DNA of 57,111 nucleotides, counting the filler, from Sluysia triapertura (Eukaryota): assembly GCA_046118255.1 (NCBI GenBank). It is 4 parts of 4 records of this genome, joined end to end, with 100 filler letters (N's around TTAATTAATTAA, not from the genome) between each part and the next. Parts side by side here need not be neighbours in the genome. Positions count along the whole stretch, not along the records: positions 1 to 16,545 come from JBJNIA010201486.1; 3 more parts are not named here. The stretch is one strand, 5' to 3'. Every line of letters starts with the position of its first letter. The first letter of the stretch is position 1. The notes beneath the pieces were generated by a model. It was not told where the DNA came from, did not search any database, and saw only the letters and a list, made by a program, of their open reading frames with translations. Positions 761 to 38,644 of the stretch are shown piece by piece. The position numbers and the translations under genes were made by a program.

Positions 761-1850
761 TAGGATTTCTAATACCGGGATCCAGTGATACCGGACATAT
801 TTTCAATTTCGTAATATCGGTATTAGCAGATTCAAAAAACCAGTTTTTTGGTATCAGCAGAAAATTTTTAAGGAAATTTTAGTTAAATCGTATAAAACAT
901 TTCGCGTGGTCAAGAAGGAAGAAATATCGCATGTATGTTTTAAGATCGTCATATATGTTTACGACGATCTAAGATCGGCATTATATTTCAATTTCACTGT
1001 TAGATATTTTTATCTGTGTAAAAAAATTGTAGTTATAACGACACAATATATATGTTTAACAAAATATATATGTAATCATAAAAAACTTTAAAAAATTTTT
1101 CAAAAAAATTTTATTTATATTTTCTTATTTGAACATTCCATAGTACAACTCGTCTATACAATACTATCATTATATACTTTTAATCTCATATTTGTTTTAA
1201 TATTAATGATGGAACATTGATGATTCTTTTAATCTTTTTGATAAAGTTTATTTATATAGTTTTTTATTTTTTTATACTTCAATACGATTATAGTTAGATT
1301 TCATTTTCTATTAAAAAATAAAAAAACGTCCTCTGCGGAGATTGAACCTGTACGTAGGACGGGGAATCAACTTTTTTTCATACATAAATAAAAGTATTTA
1401 TCTCCCTTAAATGAATAAGAATAACTTCAAAGAACATAAAAATCGAATAATGCTACTTCTGTTTGGAATCACTATTTATTTGATGAAAAGAATTTGGAAG
1501 CACAATGTATAAAATGCTCAAGAATAATTAAGGTGTGTGGAGGATCTACAAGCGGACTCCATACACATTTAAAGGTCAAACATGATACTGATATGTTGAA
1601 GGTTAAAAGAATTACTTCAACAGAAGATACAAAACCAATTGCTGTTCCAAAACCGGTGTCCTCGGGCATTTTGCATTACGTTGAAAAAAAAGATACCCTC
1701 TATGAAATCATAAGTAAAATGTCAAGTTTGGATGGCATGTCATTTCGGGTGTTTTACACCTCTGAAGAATTAAGAAAATCATTAAATGCAAGAGGATAAA
1801 AAACATCCCAACTTCAGTCAGAACAATAGTAGAAATGGTTCGTAATTTAG
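761..1850 (+). mobile_element. hAT DNA transposon 5' fragment with BED-finger transposase relic
   Basis: A hAT-like terminus TAGGATTTCTAATACCGGGATCC with ATACCGG subterminal repeats starts at 761. ATG at 1411 is followed by a frameshift near 1437, then the BED finger SVWNHY..CIKC..GGSTSGLHTHLKVKH. There is a stop at 1797, and the element is cut near 1850 by the Gypsy element. Confidence 0.8.
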
Positions 1851-1852
1851 TA

Positions 1853-2099
1853 GTAACTCAAAACCACCCCATCAACCCACCTCATAATTATAAAGTTACA
1901 AAACTCTATTGAAGCAACAAATACTCACATATACAATAACGTTACCAAACAACCAACAAACCATACAACATCAACTTCATTTCTCAAAATAAACAATAAA
2001 TCTTCTCAAGACAGTAAAATACAAAGTTCTTTTAAATCAAATAATATATCTTTTGTCTAGACAACCATAACTCATAAAACTAATAAAATTTTGAGTTAC
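1853..2099 (+). repeat. Putative 5' LTR of the Gypsy element
   Basis: A 247-bp segment is bounded by perfect 11-bp inverted ends GTAACTCAAAA (1853-1863) and TTTTGAGTTAC (2089-2099), with AATAAA at 2082. It directly precedes gag. No canonical TGG primer-binding site is seen. Confidence 0.5.
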
Positions 2100-2299
2100 G
2101 GGTTTTTCACCACCTCAGCCACACCTTCAAACAATGCCACAAATATAAACCATTACAATAATAATGTTAAAAACGGGTATATCCAATCTCAACCTACCCA
2201 GGAGCACAATATAAAATTTAATTGGTCCATAAATAAGTATAAAATAAACGGGAAAAAAATCCTTCGCACAAGTCTGTAAAGAAGGCCCCCAAATCAAAC

Positions 2300-4006
2300 G
2301 TGCCATTAGGGCCAATACAAATCAAAGGATCATTAAATCCACTTCTGGAAAACAATAACAACCAACAAACTAACAAAAGCAATTCCAAACAAATTAACAC
2401 GTTCAAGGATGTATTGAAGCAATCATCCAAAAATGCATATCTTAAAAATAATATGCAAGACCAAAAGACCAATAAGTCTAATTTCAAACAAGTCAATGCT
2501 TCTAAGAATACATTCAATCAACCAAGTAAAAACTTAAACAAAATCATTCAACCAAATCAAAAACAATTCAATACTCAAAACAAAGTACAAAAAAATTATT
2601 ATAATAATCAGATCCAGATAATTCAAGTCAAAAAATCAAACAAAACGAAATCTATTATTTCAAACGAAACCATAGATCATAGCAACCATATCAAAATAAT
2701 AACAACCCGCTCAATTCTCAAACAGAAACAAATTTTACCAGGAACAATAATCGACGTAAGTACGTCATTCGAGCGACACGTATGCACTAACATCAACACA
2801 GCCAACAATTCGAAAACCCGAAATAACAAAACAATAAATATAATAAAATGCATAACGTACAGTATAAATTCGCACTTTAACATCAAAAACTCCGATTCTA
2901 TTAATATATTTCACATGCTAAGTAAACACCCTCAAGCATGGTTTATTTATCAGGGGCAACGGTTACGTCCCCACTTAAGATTTAGCGATTACGAAATTCC
3001 ACACGGGGCAATTATATCAGTTAATCACCAACTACCTGTAGGCACCTACGACGACCCTGAAATTCCACCACGTACTGAACAAGATCAATTAACAAATATC
3101 AGTACTTCTTCGTCGTCCCAATTTTTCTTGGATGATACTGGTTCTTCAAACACATGGTTTTTGGATGTTGAAGCCATGTTTAAAACTAGTGCGATTAAAC
3201 ATCAAACTACAAAGTTTAATGACACCTTAGCAATGTTGCCACAGGCACTATTAAGTAAGATTAGCCCAAAAATCCAAGCGTGTATTGCTTCAAAATCTCC
3301 GTATGACGAACTCAAACAAATAATCACACAGTAATACCGCCCAAATTCGGAAAAAATCTTTCAAGACTACTTTAAGGTAAAAACATTAGGTACCCTTCCG
3401 AATTTTTGGCAAAAATAAAAACGGACTTAGCACCCTTCGGTTGTGACATCGACGAAAATCATGATGTCTTAAAAAGATTATTCCTCGATGCTATGCCTCT
3501 TACAGTTCAAGGCATACTCGTAGGAACTCAAAATACTAAAATCAACGAACTGGCTAAGATCGCCGATAACATTATTGTTATATGGAACAAGAATCATCAA
3601 CAACCTCTATACGCAATGAACGATTCTTCTTCCAACAGCCAGAAACACATCACAACAAGTCAAAAATCTCACGAAGCAGGTAGCAGAACTTACAAAAATT
3701 TTATTCTCAAAATCAAGAGAGAGTTCACCAACAAGATCAAGTTCTCCCACATTTTCAACGAGTGCCTCCAACTCAAACAAATCTATTAAAAATAAAAGAC
3801 CCTTTAATGGAATCTGCTACTATCATAACAGATTCCAACAAGAGGCTAAATCTTGCTTATTAGGATGTAGATTGCCAAACAAATCTACAAATCTAACAAT
3901 GAAAAACTTGTGTTTACATCATGCACACTTTCAAAAAAGTTCCAAAAAATGCATGGATGGCTGCATCCACGTTAAACAAAATTTAAAGCCCCCATCAAAA
4001 AACTGA
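2300..4006 (+). pseudogene. gag: gag: N/K/Q-rich N-terminus, ubiquitin-like domain, capsid, tandem zinc knuckles
   Basis: ORFs 2300-3334 and 3406-3789 plus the knuckle region 3815-3964. In-frame TAA at 3332 and frameshifts. The gag frame ends at TGA 4004-4006. Confidence 0.85.
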
Positions 4007-5869
4007 AATTTCCAACTGTCAAAGCGGCTAGACCGAAACAATTGGCAATCAATGGTATCTTTACTGTGTCGCTCATTTTCACTGATTTCAAATATTTCAA
4101 ATTAGATTTTCCAATTGACACTGGAGCTGCTGTGTCTGTAATTCCTCAACATTTTATCAGAAACACACCACAGACACGTTTCTTCCTTACAGCAGCTAAC
4201 GGAATAACCGTTACCTGCTACGGCTCCACAAAATTACAATTCAAATTGCCACATTTCAATAAAACCTTCGAATGGACTTTCCTAATTACCGCAGTTCAGC
4301 AACCGATTTCCTTACCCATTACAAACTCCTAGTCTATTGCCACAACAAAACTTTAACTAAGTCCTTCGAACAGTTAAAAAATATAAAAATTAAATTAGAG
4401 GATCTCAACAGTAACAATATAACTCAATATTTACAACAAATTCATCCCAAATTACTACTGGAACAATTCAACCCAGAATACGTCCCTAAATCTGAACACT
4501 TTATAAAATATACCTCCACCACCTTGCAGACAAAGACGACGAGAACTAGCTCAGAAAATACGTTCTCAGGCAGAGAAAGAATTCCTTGAAATGGAAATAC
4601 AATGAATAGTGCGACGCTCTTCTTCCTCATGGGCCGCACCTCTGCAAATCGTCAAAAAGAAAGATGGAACAATAAGAATATGTTTAAGAATGCTTAATAA
4701 AGTCACTGTTCCAGACGCATATCCTCTGCCACTTATAACAGACATCTTTCACAGATTTACTGGTTGCACAATATTCTCTTCAATAGACCTTGCAAAGGCA
4801 TATCCCAAAAACGGCCGTTTGAGTATCGGTCTGTTTGAGTATCTGCGCATGCCTTTCGGTCCACGAAATGCAGCACAAACCTTCCAGCGTCATATCGATC
4901 AAGTCATTCAAGGCTTAACTTTCACCACAGCCTACATCGATGACATCATAATTGCTTCCAGAGATTTCAAACAACATCAAACATATCTCCACAGTTACTA
5001 AACGAAAGTGAATACGATATCGGTAACAAACACTCGGCAATTGTAAATTTTTCTTTTATCCAAAATTTTTGTAAATTATATCATTTTTTTATTTAGACGA
5101 TCTTTCTGAATTAAAGCTGATTGAAGTACAAAGGAATACAGTGGCAATTTTTACGATTCTTAGTTTAATATCAAATAAAATATTTGTAAATATTCACACT
5201 TTGTTTATTTATTTAAATGTTTAATCTTTATAGAATATGGCTTTGCCAATTTTAATAAAAGTTATATGTTACTTATCTTCAGAATTAAAAGACCTTTTTA
5301 TAGACTGAGAATAAGTCCGACAATTTATGGACAGATATATTCATATCGAGTCAAAATAAATTTTGTAAACTTAAATTTAATTTTTTCAAACTATAACTTA
5401 ACCCCACCAAATTGGTGTCAATACGTTAAGATAACATTATTAAGTTCAAACTTTACCTTACTAAAATGTTACCAGGAATTCGAAATAACCGTATTAAATT
5501 ACAAAATAATCCCATATTTGTAGTTTGAATCCACATGAATTAATTTAAATTTTAAGCTACAGAGTGGCAGTAATGTCAATTTGATTGAAGTTAAAAAAGT
5601 GGGTCTGAAACATTCTTCTCGCAAACATGAAACTGACTAATTTTAATAAATTAAGTAATATAACAGTTATGGGATACTTAGTGATAATTAATATAAAAGC
5701 AAAAACTACAAAAACTAGATTTTGTACTTAAAGCAGCACTTGAATATAATTTTGTTTTATCTAATCATGTGGTTTATTTACTTTTAACATCACTGTTTAA
5801 AAAATACGATGTAGTTGAATTTTTTAGAGTCACTTGATTCCTATTTTAAAAAATATTGACACAAAAGTA

Positions 5870-7925
5870 TGAGATGCAGATCCTACAGGAAAATTCCTTT
5901 GTCTCCTATTTAATAAAATATTGCACATACAAAATATACCCAAGTCATGGAAATCATTCATAACTCTTATCATTAAACCTAATAAATTCCACGCCGCTTA
6001 TGAAGTTGCTTCCTGGCGCCCAATTGCGATCCTTGATTCTACATATAGAATTTTTACCAAAATACTAAATGATCGCCTTTTATCGTGGATTCACTGTGGA
6101 AATCTTATTAGTTCCCATCAAGCAGCACTTCTACGCTCTGATGGCTGCACTGAACATAATTTCCTGCTCCACAGCCTTCAGGAAATTATTGCTTCTTTGA
6201 ATCATAAAAAGACAGTGCAGAAGGAACTTCATATCGTGTTTCTTGATATTACCAACGCCTTTGGGTCTGTGCCTCACACACCCTTAACCTCCTTCGGGAC
6301 ATTTATGATTGCAGTACCACTAGTTACAGCCTTCTCACAGACTCTCTTCCAATTAAGTATGGCGTCAAGTAGGGTTGTCCATTGTCAATGACACTGTTTT
6401 GTATTTCTATTGACTTCTTATTTCGTGCCTTTCGCCCAGAGGACGACGTTTTGATTAGTGGCATTTCATTTCATTATGCAGATGATATTGCCCTAATCCA
6501 TACATCACATGGACAACTACATCAGGTCGTGAATCGTATTGTTGAGCAAGCAAAATCGGCTAACTTAATTTTCAGTCCTACGAAATGCTTTTACTACAAG
6601 TGAACTTTGCCTTAGCATCAACAATGTACCGATACCGAACATGAAACAGACTAAAGAGGAAACAATTATTTACTTAGGGTCCCATTTAGCGAATTGAAGG
6701 AACAAAGCGTTCATAAACTTTTGGAGGAAAATCTTGCATATGTCCGTAAGATACAGACATGTAGTCTCAGTTGTAAGAATAAGTTTCTTATGTATCGAAA
6801 CTTCTTACACTCAAGTCAGCCGTTTCATTTCCGTAACCTCAATATCAATACACAAACTTTGAGTAGTCCCCATTCTAGACAATCCAGAAATCTCCCCAAA
6901 TCGGTAGGTTACGACGAAATGATGCATAAAATATTCAAATTATTTCTTAACTTGAAACAGTTTCCTCTAAATAATTGTTTCTTCTACACTCATAAAAATC
7001 ATGGAGGTCTTAGTTTGATTTCTTCTTATGATGACTATATTTGTTAAAATATAGTCTGCGCGCTCCGTCACATTACTCATCCATAATCTGGCAGTGCCGT
7101 AAATTATGAAGGTTTATCAAATCGCCTAAACCAGGTAACTGAGTTAACCCATGCACTAACTTGGTTAAATGGATGTCGATCTGATAGACTGCAACTCCAA
7201 ACCTAGTGGTCTAAAATTAGAACCTCCATTCTTAGTTAGCAGCGTAAGTACAATATTCAGGTCATCTTCATTCTCGCCGATGATCAAATTAAACTGTCCA
7301 TTAAATCCGACATCATTGGAGACGATGAAGTTACGTTTGGTCGGTTTCATAAAGATAAAGTAGGGAAATATCTGCCCGAACTCTCAATGAGGAAAAATAT
7401 GGAGATCTTGAAGAAAAATTACAAAACAGCTAGACTGTCAGGTTTCCCTTGATACTTTTGTTGTGGGGACCCTCGGTTCTTGGGATCCCGAAAATGAAAT
7501 CTTACTTAAATCTTTGGGTTTCCGAAAAGCGGACACGACGAGTTTGGCGGGGCAATGCATTAGACTATCCATCGAATCATCCTATAATACCTATATGGAA
7601 CATACACTTCAATATCCAGGGTAGGGTTATAATTAATTTCATTTTTTAAATAATTTCTTCCATTCAAATATTATCTATTTATTTATTGTTTATTTTTTTG
7701 TTTCTGTTTCCAAATGACTTCCCTTATTTTATTTATTTTATAAGTATCTTATTCTTTCTGTTTTTTTTCGGTTTAACTTTTCTTATTCCATTATTTTTTG
7801 TTTGTTTGTTTGTTGTTGTGATATTATGTATGTTAATAATTATATTGAATGAATGAGACTTGCAGATAGACTAATATTCTGGCAACAGCAGCAATAAATC
7901 AGTCATTAATAGAGCACTGATTTAT
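5870..7925 (+). mobile_element. Non-LTR retrotransposon of RLE type (Utopia/NeSL-like), decayed and internally deleted
   Basis: RT motifs IPKSWK, WRPIAIL, DGCTEHNFLL, FLDITNAFGSVPH, GV..GCPLSMTLF, YADDIAL and HGGL. The C-terminal RLE motif DTFVVGTLGSWDPENEI is at 7451-7501. A T-rich 3' region follows, with a 10-bp hairpin (7894-7903 pairing with 7916-7925). Confidence 0.85.
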
Positions 7926-8012: not shown

Positions 8013-9870
8013 TTATTGTCCCGGAATATATTCAATGTTGAGATTGAACTGGGAAAGATAATTGATATGCCGTTGTTGCCTAGATGTTGCATTTCTCATA
8101 GCGAAATTGTGCAACAGTGGCTTGTGGTCAGATCCTAGTTTGAACTGAGCTGGAAGCATCAAATATTCAAAATGCTTTACTGATAAGTAGATAGCCATCA
8201 GTTCGCAACCGAAGGTGGAATATCGTGTTTGCTGGGCAGACAATTTGTGTGAGAAGAATTCTACAGGTTTTGAAATCCTTTGCTGAATTTGAGAAAGTAC
8301 CGCGCCTTAGAGGCGTTCGTAGTGAGAATAAAAGGTACTTGTGGCAGAGGGAATGATAAACTTTTCATATCCATAATTGCTTCTTTGTTACGAATTTTGA
8401 TCTCATTGAAATGGCTGCGATTTCTTGTCCGAGGAGCTCTTTTCGACTAGTCCTAAGAAACTCCGCATTTGTGTAACTGTTTGTGGTTGTGGGAAGTCTC
8501 TTATTGCTTCTGTAAGGCTTTCTAATTGTTCAATGCCGTCAGCGGAGATATTGTGACCTGGAAATGTAATTCCCGACTTGAAAAATTGACATTTCATCGG
8601 TTTAATAATTAAACTATTGTCGGCCAATTTCTCCAACACTATATCAAACTGAATTTGGTGTTGTTGGATATATTGGGATGCGACTATGATATCGTCAATA
8701 CAGGCCGTTGAGAATGGCTTTGGTTTGGTCGATATGACGTTGAAAAGTTTGTGCAGCGCTGCATAAGCCGAAAGGCATTCTAATATATTCAAAAAGACCA
8801 AAAGGGCTCGTCACAGCCCTTTTTGGTATATCAGAATCGCGCACTGGTATTTGGTGATAGGCCTTTGCTAGGTCAATTGATGAAAAAACGCTGCATCCGG
8901 GAAACCTATGTAATATATACGTTATAAGAAGCTTCGGATATGAGTCTGGTATAGTTACCTTGTTCAATATTCTGTAATCGCCGCATATTCGAATGTTACC
9001 ATCTTTTCTTTACGATTTACAGAGGTGCGGCCCAAGAGGATGAAGATCGCCGCACTATTCCTTGTTTTTTCGTGTCAAGGAATTCTAGCTCTGCTTGTGA
9101 AAGGATTTTCTGGAATAATGAAATGCCCTAAGCAAGGTACATGACTTGAATTAAATTGTTGATTGAGTAATTCAGGTACACCTGCTCCGCATATGAAATA
9201 ATGTTTGTTTCATTGAGTTACTGAAGTAATATTCTTATGTGGGACACTTGTCCATAAGGTTTTTATTCTACAGTCTACGAGCAGTTTGTAATGACTGAGG
9301 AAATCTGCTCCCAGAATTTTCTGTTGAACTGCAGCTATTAGAAAATTCCATTGGAATACTTCAGTGAACCATGGTATTTTGAATTTAATTTTTAGACAAC
9401 CAAAGCAAGCCATTCCAAAGCAAGTTGTTCCATAGGCTGCTGTATTATTTATTATAATATTGGGAATAACTGATGCAGAGGCTCCAGCATCAATTAGAAA
9501 ATCCAGCTTAGTATACTGAGAATTGATAAAAGTTAGCGGCATTGAGAATATTCTGTTTATCGACAGCCATTGGCATATTGGGCGAATGAACTAAATTGGT
9601 TGCCGCCACCCATGCATATTTCGACCAGCTCTTTAAACTATGCATGGTAGATGCATATATTTTTTGATTCTCAGGGTGTTATTGGGTTTCTGCAACCTAG
9701 TACGCAACATTTGGTCTTCGATGAAACTTATTATGGTAGTAGTAAATACTATTGAATTTCTTGAGGTAAATGGATGATTTGTGCGATATTGAAGAAGACC
9801 TAGAATTTTGAGGTGAGTTGCGTTTGAAAGTTATTTTATTTTCCGAAAAGACTAACTGAGAGCATCTTGG
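8013..9870 (-). mobile_element. Second Mag/CsRn1-type Gypsy fragment (gag C-terminus, protease, RT, RNase H)
   Basis: Knuckle relics YYYHNKF..CCVLGC and CIYHA*F..C. Protease FLIDAGASASVIP. RT motifs IDLAKAYHQIPV, MPFGLCSAAQTFQR and CIDDII. RNase H YSTFGCELMAIY..SDHKPL..RQQRHINYLSQF. Confidence 0.92.
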
Positions 9871-13585: not shown

Positions 13586-14103
13586 ATGTATTTGCTTAAT
13601 TTTTTTAGAAATTTTCATACGACTTCTTCAATTTTATATAAAACTAAAATATCATATTTAGATAGGTATTTATGGTATTATACATATAAGAAACATAAGG
13701 TAAAAGCGAGACATCCATTTATCCCAAGGTAATAAATTTTTAATTAATGAAATATAGGGAACATGCAACAGGATTAAATATGAATTGTGGATCAAAAACT
13801 TTTTTTATAGAAATACCTGAAATGATACCAGAATTTATTGTTCCGAAGGAATTAGAAAAGTTTGCTTTAAAGCCTTACGTTGAATGGAATGCCAGCGTTA
13901 TTGAAAATAAACCACTTACAAGTCAAGAACTGTTTGCTCGTACTTATCAAAAATATTGCAAAAAGTTTAGTCATAAGGAAATGGCAAATTTCATTTCTAA
14001 CTATTCAGACAAACCACTGGAAGATAATAAAATTGATAAACCTAAGAAGACTATAATAAAGCAATTGTCAAAGAAAGCGAAAAAAGCTTTCACGTCACTC
14101 TAG
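13586..14103 (+). CDS. MRPL41: Mitochondrial large ribosomal subunit protein mL41 (exons 13586-13728, 13758-14103)
   Basis: Presequence-like N-terminus MYLLNFFRNFHTTSS. A 29-nt GT-AG intron restores the frame. FIEIPEMIPEFIVP..FALKPYV..PLTSQELF matches mL41 (FVQIKEMVPEFVVP..FKLKPYV..PLTAAQLF). Confidence 0.88.
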
Positions 14104-16469
14104 AAATTAATTCGAATACTTACATATTTTAAAGCAAGTTGTGCTTAATTTTAAATAAAATTTAAAATGTTCACAAAGCATTTGTTTTTCATACAATTAT
14201 AGCTATTTTAGTGAAATTGTGAAGGAAGTATGTGAAGAAAAATAAAATTTTCTGTTGTATATAAACGATATTTTATCAGGTATGTCAAAATACTTAATGC
14301 TAAAAGGTTTGATTGTATATTAGTATAAATTAAATTTTGTACATTTATGTTTTCAAAGGTATTAATTTATTCTAAATTATTTTTGTGATAAGCTTGTTTC
14401 TTAATGCTTAATAATAATCATAAATTTTAATAAAATAACCTAGAAATCATAAGTAAAATATTAATGAAAAATAAGTGTTGTAATATTTCTCTTAATCATA
14501 ATAAATCTACAACTGGTATTAGAAGTAAGATTTGAGATTTAATAATGCAGGAAACAGTGTTACAAATTGATGGATAAGACAATAAAACAGTAAATTGATA
14601 AAACACCTGTAGTCTTTAAGAACTAGAAAATAATTTGGGATTCCGAAGATCCTGGAGGAAATTTGAGATTGGTGTGGTGGGCTAAAACATAACTCAAATT
14701 ATCATATAAAAACATAGTAAAGTAATTTTACACTACACTATTTAACCAAAACATTAAACAAAAATACTATATTTGGAAGTTTCATAATTTCATGTTGATG
14801 TTTTAAATATTTAAATTTAAGTTTTATTAAAAAACTTTCTCTTTATTGACGTAACTTAATTTATAAGTTACTTCCATTATCTTAGTTAAATATCTTTGTG
14901 TAAAATTTATGAGATAAATGTTTCAAATACATTCTGTACATGCAGATGTAACATTTTGTCTTAGGCTAAAAACTTAAAATTAATTCAAAGCGTTCAGAGA
15001 CTGGTAGATATGCCATCGCGTAAGAAAATTATGAAGTAATTGAATTGAACAAATTGAATGAATTGCAGCAAATAAGAAAGTGAGTAAATTGATCGTGTTA
15101 AAATGCTACTGAATCAGTAAATTGTGACATTAGCGTATTTGTTTTCATTACTGAAAGGTCCAAGCAGTAACGAGTAATTTGGTATTTTTGTTCAGGTTGA
15201 AGCTGTTTATGTTTTTTGTATAATAACAAAGAAGCAAATGAAGTAGTGAAATCATTTTGGTCTCGACAAATTAATATCTTAAAAAATAAAATGACAGAAA
15301 TTGATCACCAAACACAACATCAATACGACAGCGGTATAAAATCGATTTAAAATTCGATATTGGTTGTTAAATGAACAATTTATTAATGTATTAATCAATT
15401 ATTATGATGAGAAATGTTGGAAAGAATGGTTTGTTGTTAATATGCTGAATTACCCAGATAGAAAGATTATACTTCTAGTCATGCACAGGACTTACAGATT
15501 TGGGCCATATGGAAGAAACGTAATAATAGATAAAGATTGTGAAGAATATAACGCCGAAGTTCATTGTAATGAAATCACATCAAAATTACAAGCACACAGT
15601 ATCACATGCAAACATTTCCTACATACACAGAACGCTAAGTAAACTACTTGAATTATTCAAAAACAGTCATTGTACATAATTATCATGAATTATAGTTATT
15701 ATAAATCCATTTGTAATAATAATTATAATAATATCACAATATCATTAACGTCATCATATTAAATCATAAATAATTATATTATTGTTATCGTTATGATTTA
15801 TGTGTTCCTGTAATTATACTCAAGAAAATGCAACTTTAATAACAAATTCCTAATAATCTTATTTCAATGTACATTGTAAATAACATCAATTAAAAGCGTA
15901 ATTTTTATTAGTAACTGGTAGCCAATCTTTAATTTAAGATTCAAATTAATTTTTTCCGCAATATCAGATGTTTTAACATTGTACATTTTTTATACCTACC
16001 CAGATCTATTAGAACCTTTTCATACTTTAAAACATTTAAATTCACAATCTTTCAACATCCAAACTATATTTACATTCAAAACCATCAATAGTCATCTATA
16101 TATTCATTTAACACATTTTATTCATTGTCTCATAAACACAATTATATCTTAAATCATCATATATCTACTTCAAAATTAACCCAAAACATTTCAAGTTCAC
16201 AATCTTTTATATAATCGAAAAACATTAAACTCATACTTATTAATTTTTTTCAAACCAACAAAAGCAAGAATAGAATTTAAAATCATAAAAATAATTTGCA
16301 AATGCTTACTTACAGAAGTTGTAAATATAATAATTTAAATAATTTTAAAAATTGGAAACAAAGTTGAATATTTGATTGAGACATGATGATCTACATAGAA
16401 TCCACAGTGATAATAAGTTACCAGAGAGTGTCAAATTACTGGAAGATTGTGAAATAATATAGTGTAGAT

Positions 16470-16721
16470 CAGGGGTCTTCAACCTGGGTTCCGCGGAACC
16501 CTAGGGTTCCCTGGAACGTTGACAGGGGTTCCGCAACTGATTAAGNNNNNNNNNNNNNNNNNNNNNNNNNNNNNNNNNNNNNNNNNNNNTTAATTAATTA
16601 ANNNNNNNNNNNNNNNNNNNNNNNNNNNNNNNNNNNNNNNNNNNNCTTAATCAGTTGCGGAACCCCTGTCAACGTTCCAGGGAACCCTAGGGTTCCGCGG
16701 AACCCAGGTTGAAGACCCCTG
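16470..16721. mobile_element. hAT-type element termini (76 bp, inverted) flanking an assembly gap
   Basis: CAGGGGTCTTCAACCTGGGTTCCGCGG... at 16470-16545 and its exact reverse complement at 16646-16721. The flanking 8-mers (gtgtagat, agttaaat) are not a target-site duplication. Confidence 0.7.
16546..16645. other. Assembly gap spacer N44-TTAATTAATTAA-N44
   Basis: Artificial six-frame-stop linker, identical at three gaps. Confidence 0.97.
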
Positions 16722-16899
16722 AGTTAAATTATTACTTTCATCAACAATTCTAAATCTAAACACGTCTTTTGGTAAATAAATTGGTTGGTCTGTTTAATAA
16801 CCGATGTGGACAGTTTTGATAATATCATTGAATTAAATCTTTATTTATGTATATTTTTTTATTTATTTTTGACATATTAAATGAATAACATTTTTTCAG

Positions 16900-19587: not shown

Positions 19588-22465
19588 ATGTATAATGGTA
19601 TCGGATTAACTACTCCACGTGGAAGTGGAACAAACGGATATGTCCAAAGAAATTTGGCATTAGTTCAAAATAAAAAAGATGATTTTAAAGCTCCTGAATT
19701 AAAACCACCACCAATAAATAGAAAACCAAATAAAGAAATTTTAGAACATGAAAGAAAGCGTAAAGTTGAAGTAAAGTGCATGGAATTACAAGAAAAAATG
19801 GAAGAACAAGGGTAATGTACTTTATTTTTAGTTTATGTTTTCAGGTTTAATGAAATGGAAATTGAAGAAAAAGTTAATCAATATCGAGACACTTTAATGA
19901 TAAAATTTAATGAAGATGCAATTAATGATATGGAAAAGGAACTAGAAAAAGATATTGGAGGTAGAACGAAAGGTAAGGATACTCACGAAAAAGCTATGGC
20001 AGGAAAAATTAAGGATGAAAAATTTCGAAAGGCTCTGAATATTGGAAGTGATGAAGAAAAGTAATTATTCACAATTTAACCTGATAATTTATGGTAATAT
20101 TTTTTGATATTTTTGATTTTTTATGAAAGTTTTCGCATTTATATTTGTAAATTTAAAAATGCAATTATTTTAATGTGTTTTAGTAAGAATTTATAAGTGG
20201 TTTGTCAAAAATTGGTTGAACTACAATGACAGAGTAATCTTAAGTTTGGTGCATTTACAAAATTGAAATCTTTAGGTTCGAAATTTTTATTTTATATTCA
20301 TCGTTTTTTTACCATTTGGTAATAGTTCTTAAGTAAATTGTAGAAATTTGCACTATAAAAGGTTTTTATAATTGATAAAATTGAAATAAAAAAGGCCGCA
20401 TTATACTTATGTTTTCATTACTTAACCCAACGACTAAATTATAATAAATCAAAAATGTCAAAGTATTTTTTAAAGTAAATCTATTTAAATATTTTTTTAA
20501 TTTAGGGATCCGAATGAAGTATTTAATTTTCAGTCGAAAAATATGCCTCTGAAACAGAAACTAGCAAGTGAAATGGATGAAATCAATGATTCAGAGAGTG
20601 ATAAAAATGATGAAGATTCTAAGAAGCATAAGAAAAAGAATAAGAAGAACAAGAAAAAAAAATCAAAGAAGCATAAACACAAGATTAATGAATCAGAAAG
20701 TGAAAATTCAAATGATGAAAATAAACTTAATAAAAAGAAGCGAAAGCACAAAAAGAATAAGAAATCTAAAAAGAAAAGAAAAGGTAATAATGGTTCTGAT
20801 AGTTCAGTAGAATCTGGCCAAATAAGTGAGCATGAAGTTGAAAAAACAAATATGGTTTTATTAAAGGATCGGACTGAGAGTCAAGAAGAACCAAAATATG
20901 AAATAAATAAAGGTGGTTTAAATCCTGAAATAAGCGAAAAATGTAATAAAAATAAAGAAATAAGAAAAATACTTGCTGATGAAAGACGTAAACGTAAATC
21001 TAGTTTTGATAAATCACAAGATGAAAAAAAGTCACGTCGTGATGAAATTTCAGAATATGCTAAGTGGCATGATGTTGATAGTATGTCTGATAAGGAACGT
21101 AAATATTTAGATAATCGCCAAAGCGATGATCGAAAAAGAGATATGGGTCAAGATTATTTAAAATATGGTAATGACCGATTCAGTAAATCTGAAAATTGTA
21201 GAAAAAATTCTGTTGATAAAATTGAAAAGAATAGAGATGTTGGCAGATATAATGATATGAATGATAAAAACAGAAATGATCGTAAGTATCAAAATGATAA
21301 TTCAGAACGACGCTTAGATCATGAAAGAAATCGCTTCGATTCAAATTCGAAGAGTAATCGTGAATTGGAAAATAGAAAATATGACAAAATAGAAAAGTTT
21401 AATCAGGAAGATAAGTCTTTTAAGAGAGATGATAATAATTTTAATAGAGTCTATCTTGAATCTCCACGAAAGAGAGATAATGATAAAAGTTCTAAACGAG
21501 AACGCCATGAATCACCTTATCAGTCGTTCAGTAAAGTGAAAGAATCTGATAAAGATAAACAACCATGCAAAAGATTAAGACGCGATTCACCCAGACCAAA
21601 TTATGATCGAAGTAGAATTGAAAATCGTGAATTAGAAAGTAAAAGATATAAACAAGATTCACCAAAAGAATTTTTGAGGAAACGAGATAATTCAGACGTG
21701 GAAACTCGGAGATATAAGTTGGATAATCAAGAAAAGAAACCTAGAAGAGAATCACCTAGTAAAATTTATGATAAAAGATATTCGAACAAAGATTTAGAAT
21801 CACGTAAAGAAAAAAGAGATAGCAGAGATTTTGATGATAGAAGAAGCAAGCGGGAATCACCTAGTAAAATATATGATCGAAGAAGGGAATTTAATTCAGA
21901 TTCTGAAAATCAACCGAAGAAATTAGTAAAAAGCAATGAAAGAATTAGAAAAGATTCACCTTTTAGAGAAAGCAAACATGTGACAGTAGAAGCGAGAGGT
22001 TCAAAGTGTGATTTAAAATGGGGCTTTGATAAGGATAACGCAAAAGAAAATCGAAAAAACTTTGAAAATGTATCAAAGAAAGACGATAGTTCTAAAGTAG
22101 GGCAACTTAGAAATAAAATGAGTTTTGATACAGATAAGAATAGCAAGTCTAAGCAAGACGCCAGAAAGATTGACGATGAAAATTATGATGAAAAATCGAA
22201 ATCTGAATACTTATCTATTCCGAAAGCATATGAAAAGACTAAGTTCAATACTAATACTTCTAATGAGTTGAATAAAATCGAAAACAAAACGAAATGTGTT
22301 AAATCAAAGGATGATAAACAACTGAGTAATGTTAGAAAAGATATATCCAAAAGTAGTCGAAGTAGCAGTGGTAGTAACAGTAGTAGCAGCTCTAGTAATG
22401 CTACTAGTGATTCTCAGAATAGCAAGAGCAGTGAAACGTCAGATTCAGAATCTAGCTCTGATTAA
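19588..22465 (+). CDS. SRRM2: CWC21/SRRM2-family splicing factor, about 799 aa (exons 19588-19811, 19845-20060, 20506-22465)
   Basis: Invariant N-terminus [22 protein letters not shown] and cwf21 domain [25 protein letters not shown]. Introns of 33 and 445 nt with compatible phases. K-rich and RE/RD-SP low-complexity tail. Confidence 0.93.
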
Positions 22466-36450: not shown

Positions 36451-37218
36451 CTATTGTGATGGCCGGGGTATGGTTACGAAATCTTTAATTTTTAAATTTA
36501 TAATTCTAGATAGGGCAAAATAAGACTTAAGGTCTTTCAAAATATTACAATAATTTAAATTGTTTTTTGTCAAAAATTCAAATAAAATGTAACTAAAACT
36601 ATACATATATTCTAATTTACTTTTATTAAAACTATAAAACGTTATCCTAAAAGCATCACATATAAAAATTGACTCCATTTTATTGAAAGTTATCATGCAT
36701 ACGATGAACATAAAAATAACGGGATTTTGATAAATGTTATCACATAATAAAAAGTCTAAGAAAGCTAACAGTTCGCAGGTTATGACAATCAGAAATCTTC
36801 TCTCGTAGTCTTGCGTCGTTGAACAAGGTGCAAGCCAGGCAACCAAGCAGGGTGTGTCGAGATCTTTCCAACTCATTTGAGAGATATCCGTTGGTTTACG
36901 TAATTTTCTGGCAGTAATACTAAAAATATTTCTACAATCGAAAAGAGTTAAATGTACTAAACGTTTTCTCATATTTTTATCAAAGTGGATGCTATCAGTG
37001 TATTCGATGAAGTCCTTTAATGTTCTAGTAAATTCGATAAAATCATTTAATTTCTTAACATATGTCGTTAAGCCACTCAATCTCTCAACATGTGTCTTTA
37101 ATTCATTCAATCTTTGAACATATGTCTTTAAGTCATTTAATCTTTCAACACATGTCTTTAATTCATTTAATCTTCCAACATATGTCTTTAAATCATTTAA
37201 TCTTTCAACATAAGTCAT
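36451..37218 (-). CDS. Hypothetical 255-aa protein with N-terminal 10-aa tandem repeats (LKTYVERLND-like)
   Basis: A long open frame in very AT-rich DNA, with about six 30-bp tandem units at 37040-37222 and a hydrophobic C-terminal half. No recognised family. Confidence 0.4.
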   Translation of the reverse strand: MTYVERLNDLKTYVGRLNELKTCVERLNDLKTYVQRLNELKTHVERLSGLTTYVKKLNDFIEFTRTLKDFIEYTDSIHFDKNMRKRLVHLTLFDCRNIFSITARKLRKPTDISQMSWKDLDTPCLVAWLAPCSTTQDYERRFLIVITCELLAFLDFLLCDNIYQNPVIFMFIVCMITFNKMESIFICDAFRITFYSFNKSKLEYMYSFSYILFEFLTKNNLNYCNILKDLKSYFALSRIINLKIKDFVTIPRPSQ

Positions 37219-38644
37219 TTAATATGTGTTGTGATTGTCAAATGTTGTTTTATGATGTTTGTGATGGTGTAATTCGGAAGTAAAAAGTATGAAAATTGCA
37301 TTTTAATGAATTTGATTTATAGATATTAGGTTTAGTAGTTTGATTGGGTTTGAATTATGAGTGTTGACCACTACAGACTTTACCATGAAACCCTCATAAC
37401 ATAAAAATGCAGAATTGCAAATTCATAAGTGTCATAAATTGGTATTCGATTCTCACTCTAGCACTTTATTCATATATTTGAATTATTTATTCTCATTATG
37501 TGAAATTTCAAGATATGAAATTTGAGATATACCTGAAGAAATGTGATAATCGAAAGATGATACTGTGTTCATCAAATTTATATAAAGTAAAAGAAAGATG
37601 ATGGTAAGTTTTATGTTGATATAGTGCAATAGAAGGATATGTATTTCGATATTTGTAGTTTAATAGTTTACGGTATCTATGTCCAAATGTATATTGTTAC
37701 CTTCAGATTCATAAGTGTAAGATTGTGCGACATGTACTCTTTATAATCAAAGGATTCGTTAGATTGAGAATTTTGGTCAAAATATCTTGTGTGATGTTAA
37801 AAATATCACTGTCATTGTGAAGATTATGAAGGAAGCATGAAATTGTTAGAAGTAGATTCGAATCAATGATCTAGTACATGGATTTTCCTGGCTAAACTCT
37901 ATGACAAAATCAATGCAAAGTTTGCTATGTGATCAAGATGATTTTTGGCACCATAAGTAACCAGTTACTAAATATTTTTCCATTAAAGTATTAAGAAAAT
38001 AAAATTGTTTACAAATCATTAAATTTATATCCTAAGAAAATTCATTTAATTCATACTTTAATTAATACTGTTCTTTCATAACGTTCGTCTAGTTTAGCTC
38101 ATTATTTTTAATATATCATCTCGTTTACCCTCATAATATATTTTAACAAAATTCTTGCAGCCATAAACTTATATTTTTTAAACATTATTTAACTTAATTT
38201 TCCAACTCTGAACTTTTATTAGCTCAACCACCTTATTTTTGACTAATGCTTTATAAATATGGTTTGTCTAATTTTAATTATTTTAATTTTAGCGCAGAGA
38301 ATTATCAAATTCATTTTAGCCAATTAAAACTGCATTAGCATATCTGAAAAAATATACTTGTAATTGTCTTGCAACCAATATTGATTTACACTTTAGTTAT
38401 GAGACCTGGAGGCCATTTTGAATTTTATCTAAATTATTATTATTATTATTATCAAATAATTATTAATAAAATAATTAATAATTAATTAATTCTTAATAGG
38501 CAATTTCTATCAATTTGGCGTCTTGTTTATACTGAGGTTGCTGCTGCTTGTGATCTTCGCGATACTAAGGATTATAATAATTTTTATAGTGCTCTTAACA
38601 GTAAAATAACCCTGCTTTTCATATCTTTTATCTTCTAAAGTAGA

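Follow-up and report, generated by a model that had tools for sequence, protein, structure and literature searches.

Precursors in which a ubiquitin-like domain (Ubl) ending in Gly-Gly is followed directly by another protein are known from ubiquitin-eS31/eL40 and FUBI-eS30, which are cut by deubiquitinases (DUBs), and in the ubiquitin-ribosomal fusions the ubiquitin part aids folding before it is released. In LTR elements, maturation of Gag is normally the task of an aspartic protease that the element itself encodes. Cleavage of Fubi has been attributed to USP16 (cited in PMC13572447), and according to the accessible part of the same paper the N-terminal Ubl of Sde2 is removed by USP5 in human and by Ubp5/Ubp15 in fission yeast. 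That source also states that USP5 handles Ubls less than 20% identical to ubiquitin and that cleavage of human SDE2 is blocked or impaired by mutation of GG, R73 (ubiquitin R72) or L70 and halved by mutation of L74, mutations past the site having no effect (PMC13572447). Among pestiviruses, the ubiquitin inserts of BVDV Osloss, CP1, and CP Rit are cut by host hydrolases, as described in the accessible text of PMC8310069, and Ginger1, Mutator, and Helitron encode OTU/Ulp1 proteases (accessible part of PMC2836005).

In this study, we analysed a window of DNA from Sluysia triapertura (the whole stretch of 57,111 nucleotides, including filler between its parts), in which an original prediction made from the sequence had placed a Ubl within a Gypsy Gag, just upstream of the capsid domain. 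Our analysis of this locus and its relatives indicates that the Ubl-Gly-Gly Gag is a real and conserved variant among Ty3/Gypsy elements, and one that is apparently undescribed. No description of such an architecture was found in the open literature as far as its text was accessible (subscription journals, Repbase, Dfam, and GyDB lay outside this scope), and ubiquitin is not mentioned in the accessible part of PMC3248453.

Organization of the Element

The element in the window is a decayed Ty3/Gypsy copy without LTR, the 5' end of which is gone at about position 1850. Its Gag revealed the order low-complexity leader, Ubl, 26-aa linker, capsid, and two CHCC boxes, followed by the remains of pol:

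1857..2242 (+): probable continuation of the leader farther upstream, read in a different frame, judged by an A-rich, G-poor strand composition as in the leader
2243..2830 (+): open, basic, low-complexity leader (stop-free frame, shuffle test)
2831..3043 (+): Ubl, second half well supported, first half diverged (Pfam, family profile, model)
3029..3043 (+): Ubl tail Q-L-P-V-G, where 12 relatives show x-[LI]-x-G-G
3044..3121 (+): 26-aa unconserved linker without invariant column, predicted capsid N-terminus if cut
3122..3714 (+): capsid, DUF7041 lobe followed by a second lobe (Pfam DUF7041, profile segments, model)
3815-3868 and 3911-3964 (+): two CX2HX9CX3C (CHCC) zinc boxes, beyond a further frame break
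3997..4006 (+): gag stop with an AAAAAAC heptamer, where a -1 frameshift into pol is predicted; L001, the contig of a relative, has this heptamer too
3976..5001 (+): decayed pol with aspartic protease (DTG motif) and the 5' part of a reverse transcriptase (RT)

The Ubl is contained in a stop-free frame on the plus strand (2243-3334), and the capsid reading frame is interrupted by a stop (3332) and, near 3390, by a frame break. Pfam matches in pol were obtained for RVT_1 (E=6e-13) and for the protease (E about 0.1). Neither RNase H, integrase, nor an LTR was found 3' of the decayed pol, and no LTR pair was found in the window; contig L001 is cut off at its ends, as is the window copy, which bears on the LTR, the primer site, and the polypurine tract.

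The leader comprises 196 open codons, while shuffled versions average 13 stops and none out of 5000 was stop-free. It is rich in N, K, S, I, and Q with 35 K+R versus 8 D+E, harbors a single in-frame ATG (2453), and matched no Pfam family at E<=10. The stretch upstream of it, which a frame break near 2250 separates from the leader, revealed only one stop (near 2058) in 129 codons, and at most one stop in the best frame was reached by 16 of 5000 shuffles. The leader probably extended upstream of the break near 2250 formerly.

The copy is flanked by a BED-finger fragment and by a fragment of a non-LTR RT; its host is an AT-rich eukaryote, likely an animal. Several other features were observed in the window. 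The BED zinc-finger fragment (1440-1799, +; Pfam E=3e-7) adjoins the truncated 5' end of the Ubl-Gag element and probably derives from a hAT-type DNA transposon, and decayed RT fragments of non-LTR type are located at 5873-7400 (+; RVT_1 E=4.6e-9). A second decayed, related Gypsy element with about 68% nucleotide identity in RT was identified on the minus strand (8013-9718). It comprises protease, RT, and RNase H as well as a zinc-box region (9587-9718); the part with Ubl and capsid falls outside the window. Further features were an exon-like ORF matching mitoribosomal protein mL41 (13744-14103, +; E about 1e-8), a near-perfect inverted repeat of 137 bp without spacer (16459-16732, 97%), which might represent a foldback element or an artefact of the assembly, a highly charged, R/S/D/K-rich ORF of 654 aa (20501-22465, +), probably a host-gene exon, and a 30-nt tandem repeat opening a 255-aa ORF and thereby encoding a 10-residue repeat (36451-37219, minus strand).

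The Ubiquitin-Like Domain of the Window Copy

Translation of 2831-3043 on the plus strand recovered the same 71 residues that the original prediction had given, including the Val-Gly end, which is read at 3038-3043. The proposed likeness of the C-terminal half to ubiquitin was borne out by Pfam ubiquitin, which matched residues 35-65 with E=5.7e-4 at a score of 20 bits, below the cut-off of 25.4, and Rad60-SLD (Pfam) also matched the segment (E=0.002). A profile made from the Ubls of 11 relatives, with the window excluded, gave it 21.9 bits, a value reached by none of 2000 shuffled controls (the best was 13.5 among the 1993 reported). The profile alignment covers ORF residues 231-264 only, so that the first half is unsupported by itself; this also applies to the SDSI stretch, for which a match to ubiquitin had been claimed.

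With respect to the fold, a single-sequence model of the window Ubl was uninformative (pLDDT 39.9). In a model from 11 sequences, pLDDT was 76-78 over model residues 41-70, corresponding to the second Ubl half, and 86-95 in the capsid, and it was low in the first Ubl half, where the alignment is ambiguous. Foldseek returned ubiquitin or NEDD8 as top rows for this model with modest E values of 0.03-0.2 (best E=0.027). In a wide fold search, 31 of the 50 rows listed fell on model residues 1-78 and were mostly of the ubiquitin fold, with modest Z scores of 5-6. Matches to Ubl families and to the beta-grasp fold, which had been named as support, were thus returned, at modest scores and with low confidence in the first half. 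By profile and model, the window segment is ubiquitin-like, its second half being well supported. It has kept Ile at the Ile44 position and has Gln at P5; the Val-Gly tail is probably a decayed Gly-Gly and would probably be cleaved poorly. A second Ubl upstream, at about 2590-2800, was considered and rejected, as neither Pfam nor the family profile matched there, and a match to HSH49 (E about 1) was taken as chance.

Contigs from a public run, which may be the source sample itself, matched window positions 1800-5200 in 3006 cases at >=80% likeness and covered all 30 bins. Single-position differences inside the Ubl were seen in 13 to 28 contigs each, among the 40 of 718 difference rows listed. 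Since these contigs cover the Ubl, it is not private to the window copy, and the one-off insertion that the original prediction had itself put forward as the opposite outcome is ruled out by them together with the 12 distant relatives that carry a Ubl.

Relatives and Placement of the Lineage

A search with window positions 2741-3331 against 1.84 billion representatives resulted in 10 matches, seven of which revealed a Ubl-like stretch with a Gly-Gly end directly ahead of the capsid. A subsequent profile search gave six matches, including five new ones, namely four with Ubl-Gly-Gly and P0020, which begins 10 residues before the capsid anchor. Altogether, a Ubl with a Gly-Gly end 15-29 aa ahead of the capsid was found in 12 of 15 relative clusters, the remaining three being too short to judge in two cases and without Ubl in one. 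P0004, with 40 residues but no Gly-Gly ahead of the capsid anchor, and P0007, which starts within the capsid, look like ordinary DUF7041 fragments. Both queries contained the Ubl, so that relatives lacking it may be under-sampled; as the first query carried Val-Gly, there was no selection for Gly-Gly among its matches. Fusions of Ubl and DUF7041, proposed as a search target, thus exist in 12 diverged relatives, and the suspected Gly-Gly consensus holds at the level of the lineage, all 12 ending in Gly-Gly.

One relative allowed a blind check. The protein of P0008 begins just past the expected cut site and was retrieved without any Ubl; because of this, the in-frame Ubl half with LLGG that its contig (L001) harbors right before the annotated Met (Pfam ubiquitin E=6.6e-5) could not have influenced its retrieval. 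L001 is the one relative out of 12 for which the architecture was seen in DNA, the other 11 being predicted proteins, and some of these have host exons joined to their front. P0003, the front of which is a host Hsp90 piece, P0009, and P0018 carry host-gene pieces in long N-terminal parts and were left out of the evidence on leaders. Ubl and capsid are contiguous in the DNA of both the window and L001. In L001, Gag is linked to an open pol of 1137 aa with protease, RT, RNase H, and integrase in complete order, of which the window copy has the protease and a partial RT. Apart from the aspartic protease, the L001 pol revealed no OTU, Ulp1, or other cysteine-protease family in Pfam. The profile scan of metagenome contigs led to one locus out of 485 stretches, which was L001. 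No relatives were obtained by a word-based search with the window Gag (155 candidates), none were confirmed in viral contigs or in metagenome contigs scanned with the window protein, and none of 7456 was a longer, fused Gag-Pol form, which is weak evidence.

Regarding the capsid, the match of the window ORF to DUF7041 lies above the Pfam cut-off (E=5.8e-8). In the wide fold search, 19 of the 50 rows listed were capsid domains covering model residues 90-172, and the capsid matches comprised PEG10, Copia, Arc, and Ty3 at modest Z scores of 6-7.7 (top Z 7.7). A capsid was predicted about 35 aa downstream of the Ubl; it does follow shortly downstream, but the linker to the xFLD anchor is 26 aa, 35 aa being the distance from the Ubl end to the start of the Pfam DUF7041 alignment. 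Nearest clusters in the Atlas were DUF7041 proteins of 265-309 aa with no ubiquitin family listed (scores of 0.86, leads only). Of 13 relatives checked, 12 have two CX2HX9CX3C boxes like the window, and the remaining one ends before the region; the AAAAAAC heptamer at the gag/pol overlap was identified in L001 and in the window. The doubled CHCC box represents a second signature of the lineage, usable for finding members independently of the Ubl.

Similarity of the Ubl correlated with that of the capsid (rho 0.71 over 13 rows, 0 of 5000 permutations), also with one row per clade (8 rows; rho 0.61 and 0.66, reached by 1 and 8 of 5000 permutations), as would be expected under long joint inheritance. 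In the mostly unresolved capsid tree, the window grouped at weak support (64/74) with two ordinary DUF7041 fragments, so that a single origin of the lineage is unproven. Based on the members compared, the Ubl-bearing Gag is a feature of a whole Ty3/Gypsy lineage, which we regard as CsRn1-like without filing it as a member of the CsRn1 clade. The layout of leader, Ubl, Gly-Gly, and capsid that had been put forward for this family was, cleavage aside, recovered as a trait of the lineage, with a coding leader in the window copy.

Leaders of the relatives vary in length between about 12 and several hundred residues and are not alignable, and since some of them are joins with host exons, no common leader is established. 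Within the N-terminal parts of P0002, P0003, P0009, P0014, and P0017, we observed the peptide VSEV (MVSEVGF in P0017), that is, in 5 of 11 relatives versus 0.06 expected. VSEV is the peptide that a tRNA-Leu(CAA) primer site would encode, and the probe sequence for this site is given in the accessible part of PMC7997516; according to the accessible text of PMC8905726, Steamer elements have the same site. For CsRn1 elements, a tRNA-Trp primer is described (PMC2582038, accessible part), and VSEV points against such a primer here. That VSEV and the Ubl share one predicted protein hints at an open frame from the primer site onward, with a possible start of translation at the junction of LTR and primer site.

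Conservation of the Tail and Proposed Maturation of Gag

In all 12 relatives with a Ubl, the Gly-Gly end sits 15-29 aa before the capsid anchor, while the remaining 6291 positions contain only two further Gly-Gly. The tail follows [RK]-[LI]-x-G-G with a non-Pro residue behind it, Gly-Gly and Leu/Ile at P4 being present in 12/12 and Arg/Lys at P5 in 9/12, and the window copy deviates with Q-L-P-V-G. Around this tail, conservation is low: median identity among the 12 relatives was 15.5% in the Ubl body and 17.6% in the linker compared with 29.3% in the first 75 capsid residues, and no column is invariant in body or linker. Position P1' is occupied by M, S, A, V, D, Q, or N and never by Pro. With primary destabilising residues classed as generally understood, none of the 12 has such a residue or Pro at P1', for which chance gives 0.002-0.024 depending on background, the rows being related. 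The Ile44 position shows T in five, C in three, S in two, and L in two of the 12 relatives, and Ile in none.

Despite this divergence, family profiles of nine and 15 members aligned with ubiquitin residues 3-76 at E about 1e-7, with ubiquitin, ISG15, and SUMO entries among their top 60 matches; Pfam ubiquitin matched seven of the 15 aligned members at some level and one of them, P0009, above the cut-off. The conserved body and Ile44 patch of a conjugatable modifier are absent from the relatives. A loose fold, a strict tail, a lost binding patch, and nothing invariant after the site form a pattern that is that of a candidate protease substrate.

We therefore favour, as the fairly likely reading of these sequences, that a host DUB cuts Gag past Gly-Gly and frees capsid-nucleocapsid from the leader. 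Gag would be made as leader-Ubl-Gly-Gly-linker-capsid, the Ubl may help folding prior to release, and a host DUB of USP/UCH type would cut the peptide bond after Gly-Gly. The capsid-nucleocapsid released by this cut would start 15-29 residues before the anchor, which is about the position of the Met in an ordinary DUF7041 Gag (17-18 residues before the capsid anchor in P0004, the one example). Since Gly-Gly is present in all 12 relatives with a Ubl, host ubiquitin-removing enzymes likely cut the capsid free, and from the conservation pattern of the tail together with the SDE2 and pestivirus precedents we infer host DUB cleavage. The pestivirus precedent, already cited in the original prediction, agrees with the accessible part of PMC8310069, where host hydrolases cut the ubiquitin inserts and thereby make a viral N-terminus. 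A host isopeptidase had been proposed as the cutter; the bond concerned is of the ordinary peptide type found in ubiquitin precursors and not an isopeptide bond. The USP/UCH type of the enzyme is likewise inferred; the L001 pol shows an aspartic protease only.

Other roles of the Ubl were weighed against this DUB cleavage. The released Ubl, with or without leader, might be the main product, being activated by a host E1 and attached to host proteins, or distracting E1 or DUBs as a decoy and thereby blunting silencing of the element; the invariant Gly-Gly and the mostly basic P5 would also suit E1 recognition. The long, coding leader of the window copy could be read in the same way, as could the OTU/Ulp1 proteases of other transposons, which suggest links between mobility and these pathways (PMC2836005, accessible part). 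Yet Ubl bodies of about 16% identity without an invariant column are unlike a modifier that has to fit conserved E1/E2 surfaces, and leaders cannot be aligned between relatives, so we consider this unlikely. That one ORF yields both a DUB-gated capsid and a leader-Ubl whose free Gly-Gly serves as decoy or modifier of the host system is doubtful, though conceivable.

Alternatively, the Ubl could stay attached and recruit ESCRT, or target Gag to the proteasome and so limit particle number. In engineered ubiquitin-Gag fusions, ubiquitin can indeed substitute for a viral late domain, but the budding activity of ubiquitin requires L8 and I44, and the construct was one without GG (accessible part of PMC2958808). 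Val-Gly and the Ile at the Ile44 position would suit this role in the window copy, whereas in the 12 relatives this position is never Ile and Gly-Gly is kept, which makes permanent attachment quite unlikely.

It is decidedly unlikely, by our estimate, that the Ubl is mainly a co-translational aid to folding or expression which the cut merely removes, or that the cutter is the element's own or another protease, even though both are compatible with all conservation data. The best solved structure for the Ubl half of L001 was a 130-aa ribosome chain named 'Ubiquitin-like domain-containing protein' (E=0.068), which we take to be the FUBI-eS30 precursor. A folding aid overlaps with cleavage by a host DUB and does not exclude it. 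Against the element's own enzyme, the aspartic proteases of retroelements favour cut sites with hydrophobic residues, not Gly-Gly, and the L001 pol lacks any OTU, Ulp1, or other cysteine-protease family. Finally, a neutral relic or gene-calling artefact, that is, a captured piece of ubiquitin decaying without function, is hardly credible and already largely refuted: host exons do front some database proteins and the window copy is decayed, but Ubl and capsid are contiguous in the DNA of the window and L001, they diverge jointly, and Gly-Gly is invariant over body identities of about 16%.

If cleavage by a host DUB holds true, an old lineage of Ty3/Gypsy would have passed the initial step in maturing its Gag to host deubiquitinases via a built-in Ubl signal. 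Such a signal would mean a new route of Gag maturation and would let the ubiquitin system of the host switch particle formation directly, and mobile elements would join the few natural precursors with a fused Ubl (SDE2, FUBI, ribosomal, pestivirus). The twelve natural Ubls at about 16% identity also represent a ready set for studying the minimal needs of DUB recognition.

Comparison with Known Systems

Among the systems compared, Sde2 (PMC13572447, accessible part) is similar in that a very diverged Ubl stands ahead of a working domain, and the tail positions kept in the Gag lineage are the equivalents of ubiquitin R72, L73, and L69, which govern SDE2 cleavage. In contrast to SDE2, a cellular gene with conserved surroundings of the site, the Ubl-Gag belongs to a mobile element and has nothing invariant after the site. 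Descent from SDE2 is not claimed, no SDE2 Pfam family having matched the 15 members. The layout of Ubl, Gly-Gly, and protein is shared with ubiquitin-eS31/eL40 and FUBI-eS30, which rank high against the family profile; while the Ubl is N-terminal and conserved in these ribosomal precursors, that of Gag can be internal, following a leader, and is fast-evolving.

As with the pestivirus inserts (PMC8310069, accessible part), a host hydrolase would form the N-terminus of the downstream element protein. The inserts, however, are sporadic captures of host mRNA in single RNA-virus strains, whereas the Ubl studied here is an old, diverged, and inherited part of Gag. With Ginger1, Mutator, and Helitron (PMC2836005, accessible part), the lineage has in common that a mobile element is tied to the ubiquitin/SUMO system, but these encode a protease and the Ubl-Gag lineage encodes a substrate-like domain.

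With regard to retroelements, the lineage shares the DUF7041 capsid lobe with the DUF7041 Gags of Pfam. Like the CsRn1 clade (CsRn1, PwRn1, and AgCR), it has the CX2HX9CX3C box in place of CCHC, a gag/pol overlap with -1 frameshift, and the order PR-RT-RH-IN, as far as the clade is described in the accessible part of PMC2582038. It differs from CsRn1 and its tRNA-Trp primer by a primer that, judged from the VSEV peptide, is probably tRNA-Leu(CAA), and it differs from the whole CsRn1 clade by two CHCC boxes instead of one and by a leader and Ubl-Gly-Gly ahead of the capsid.
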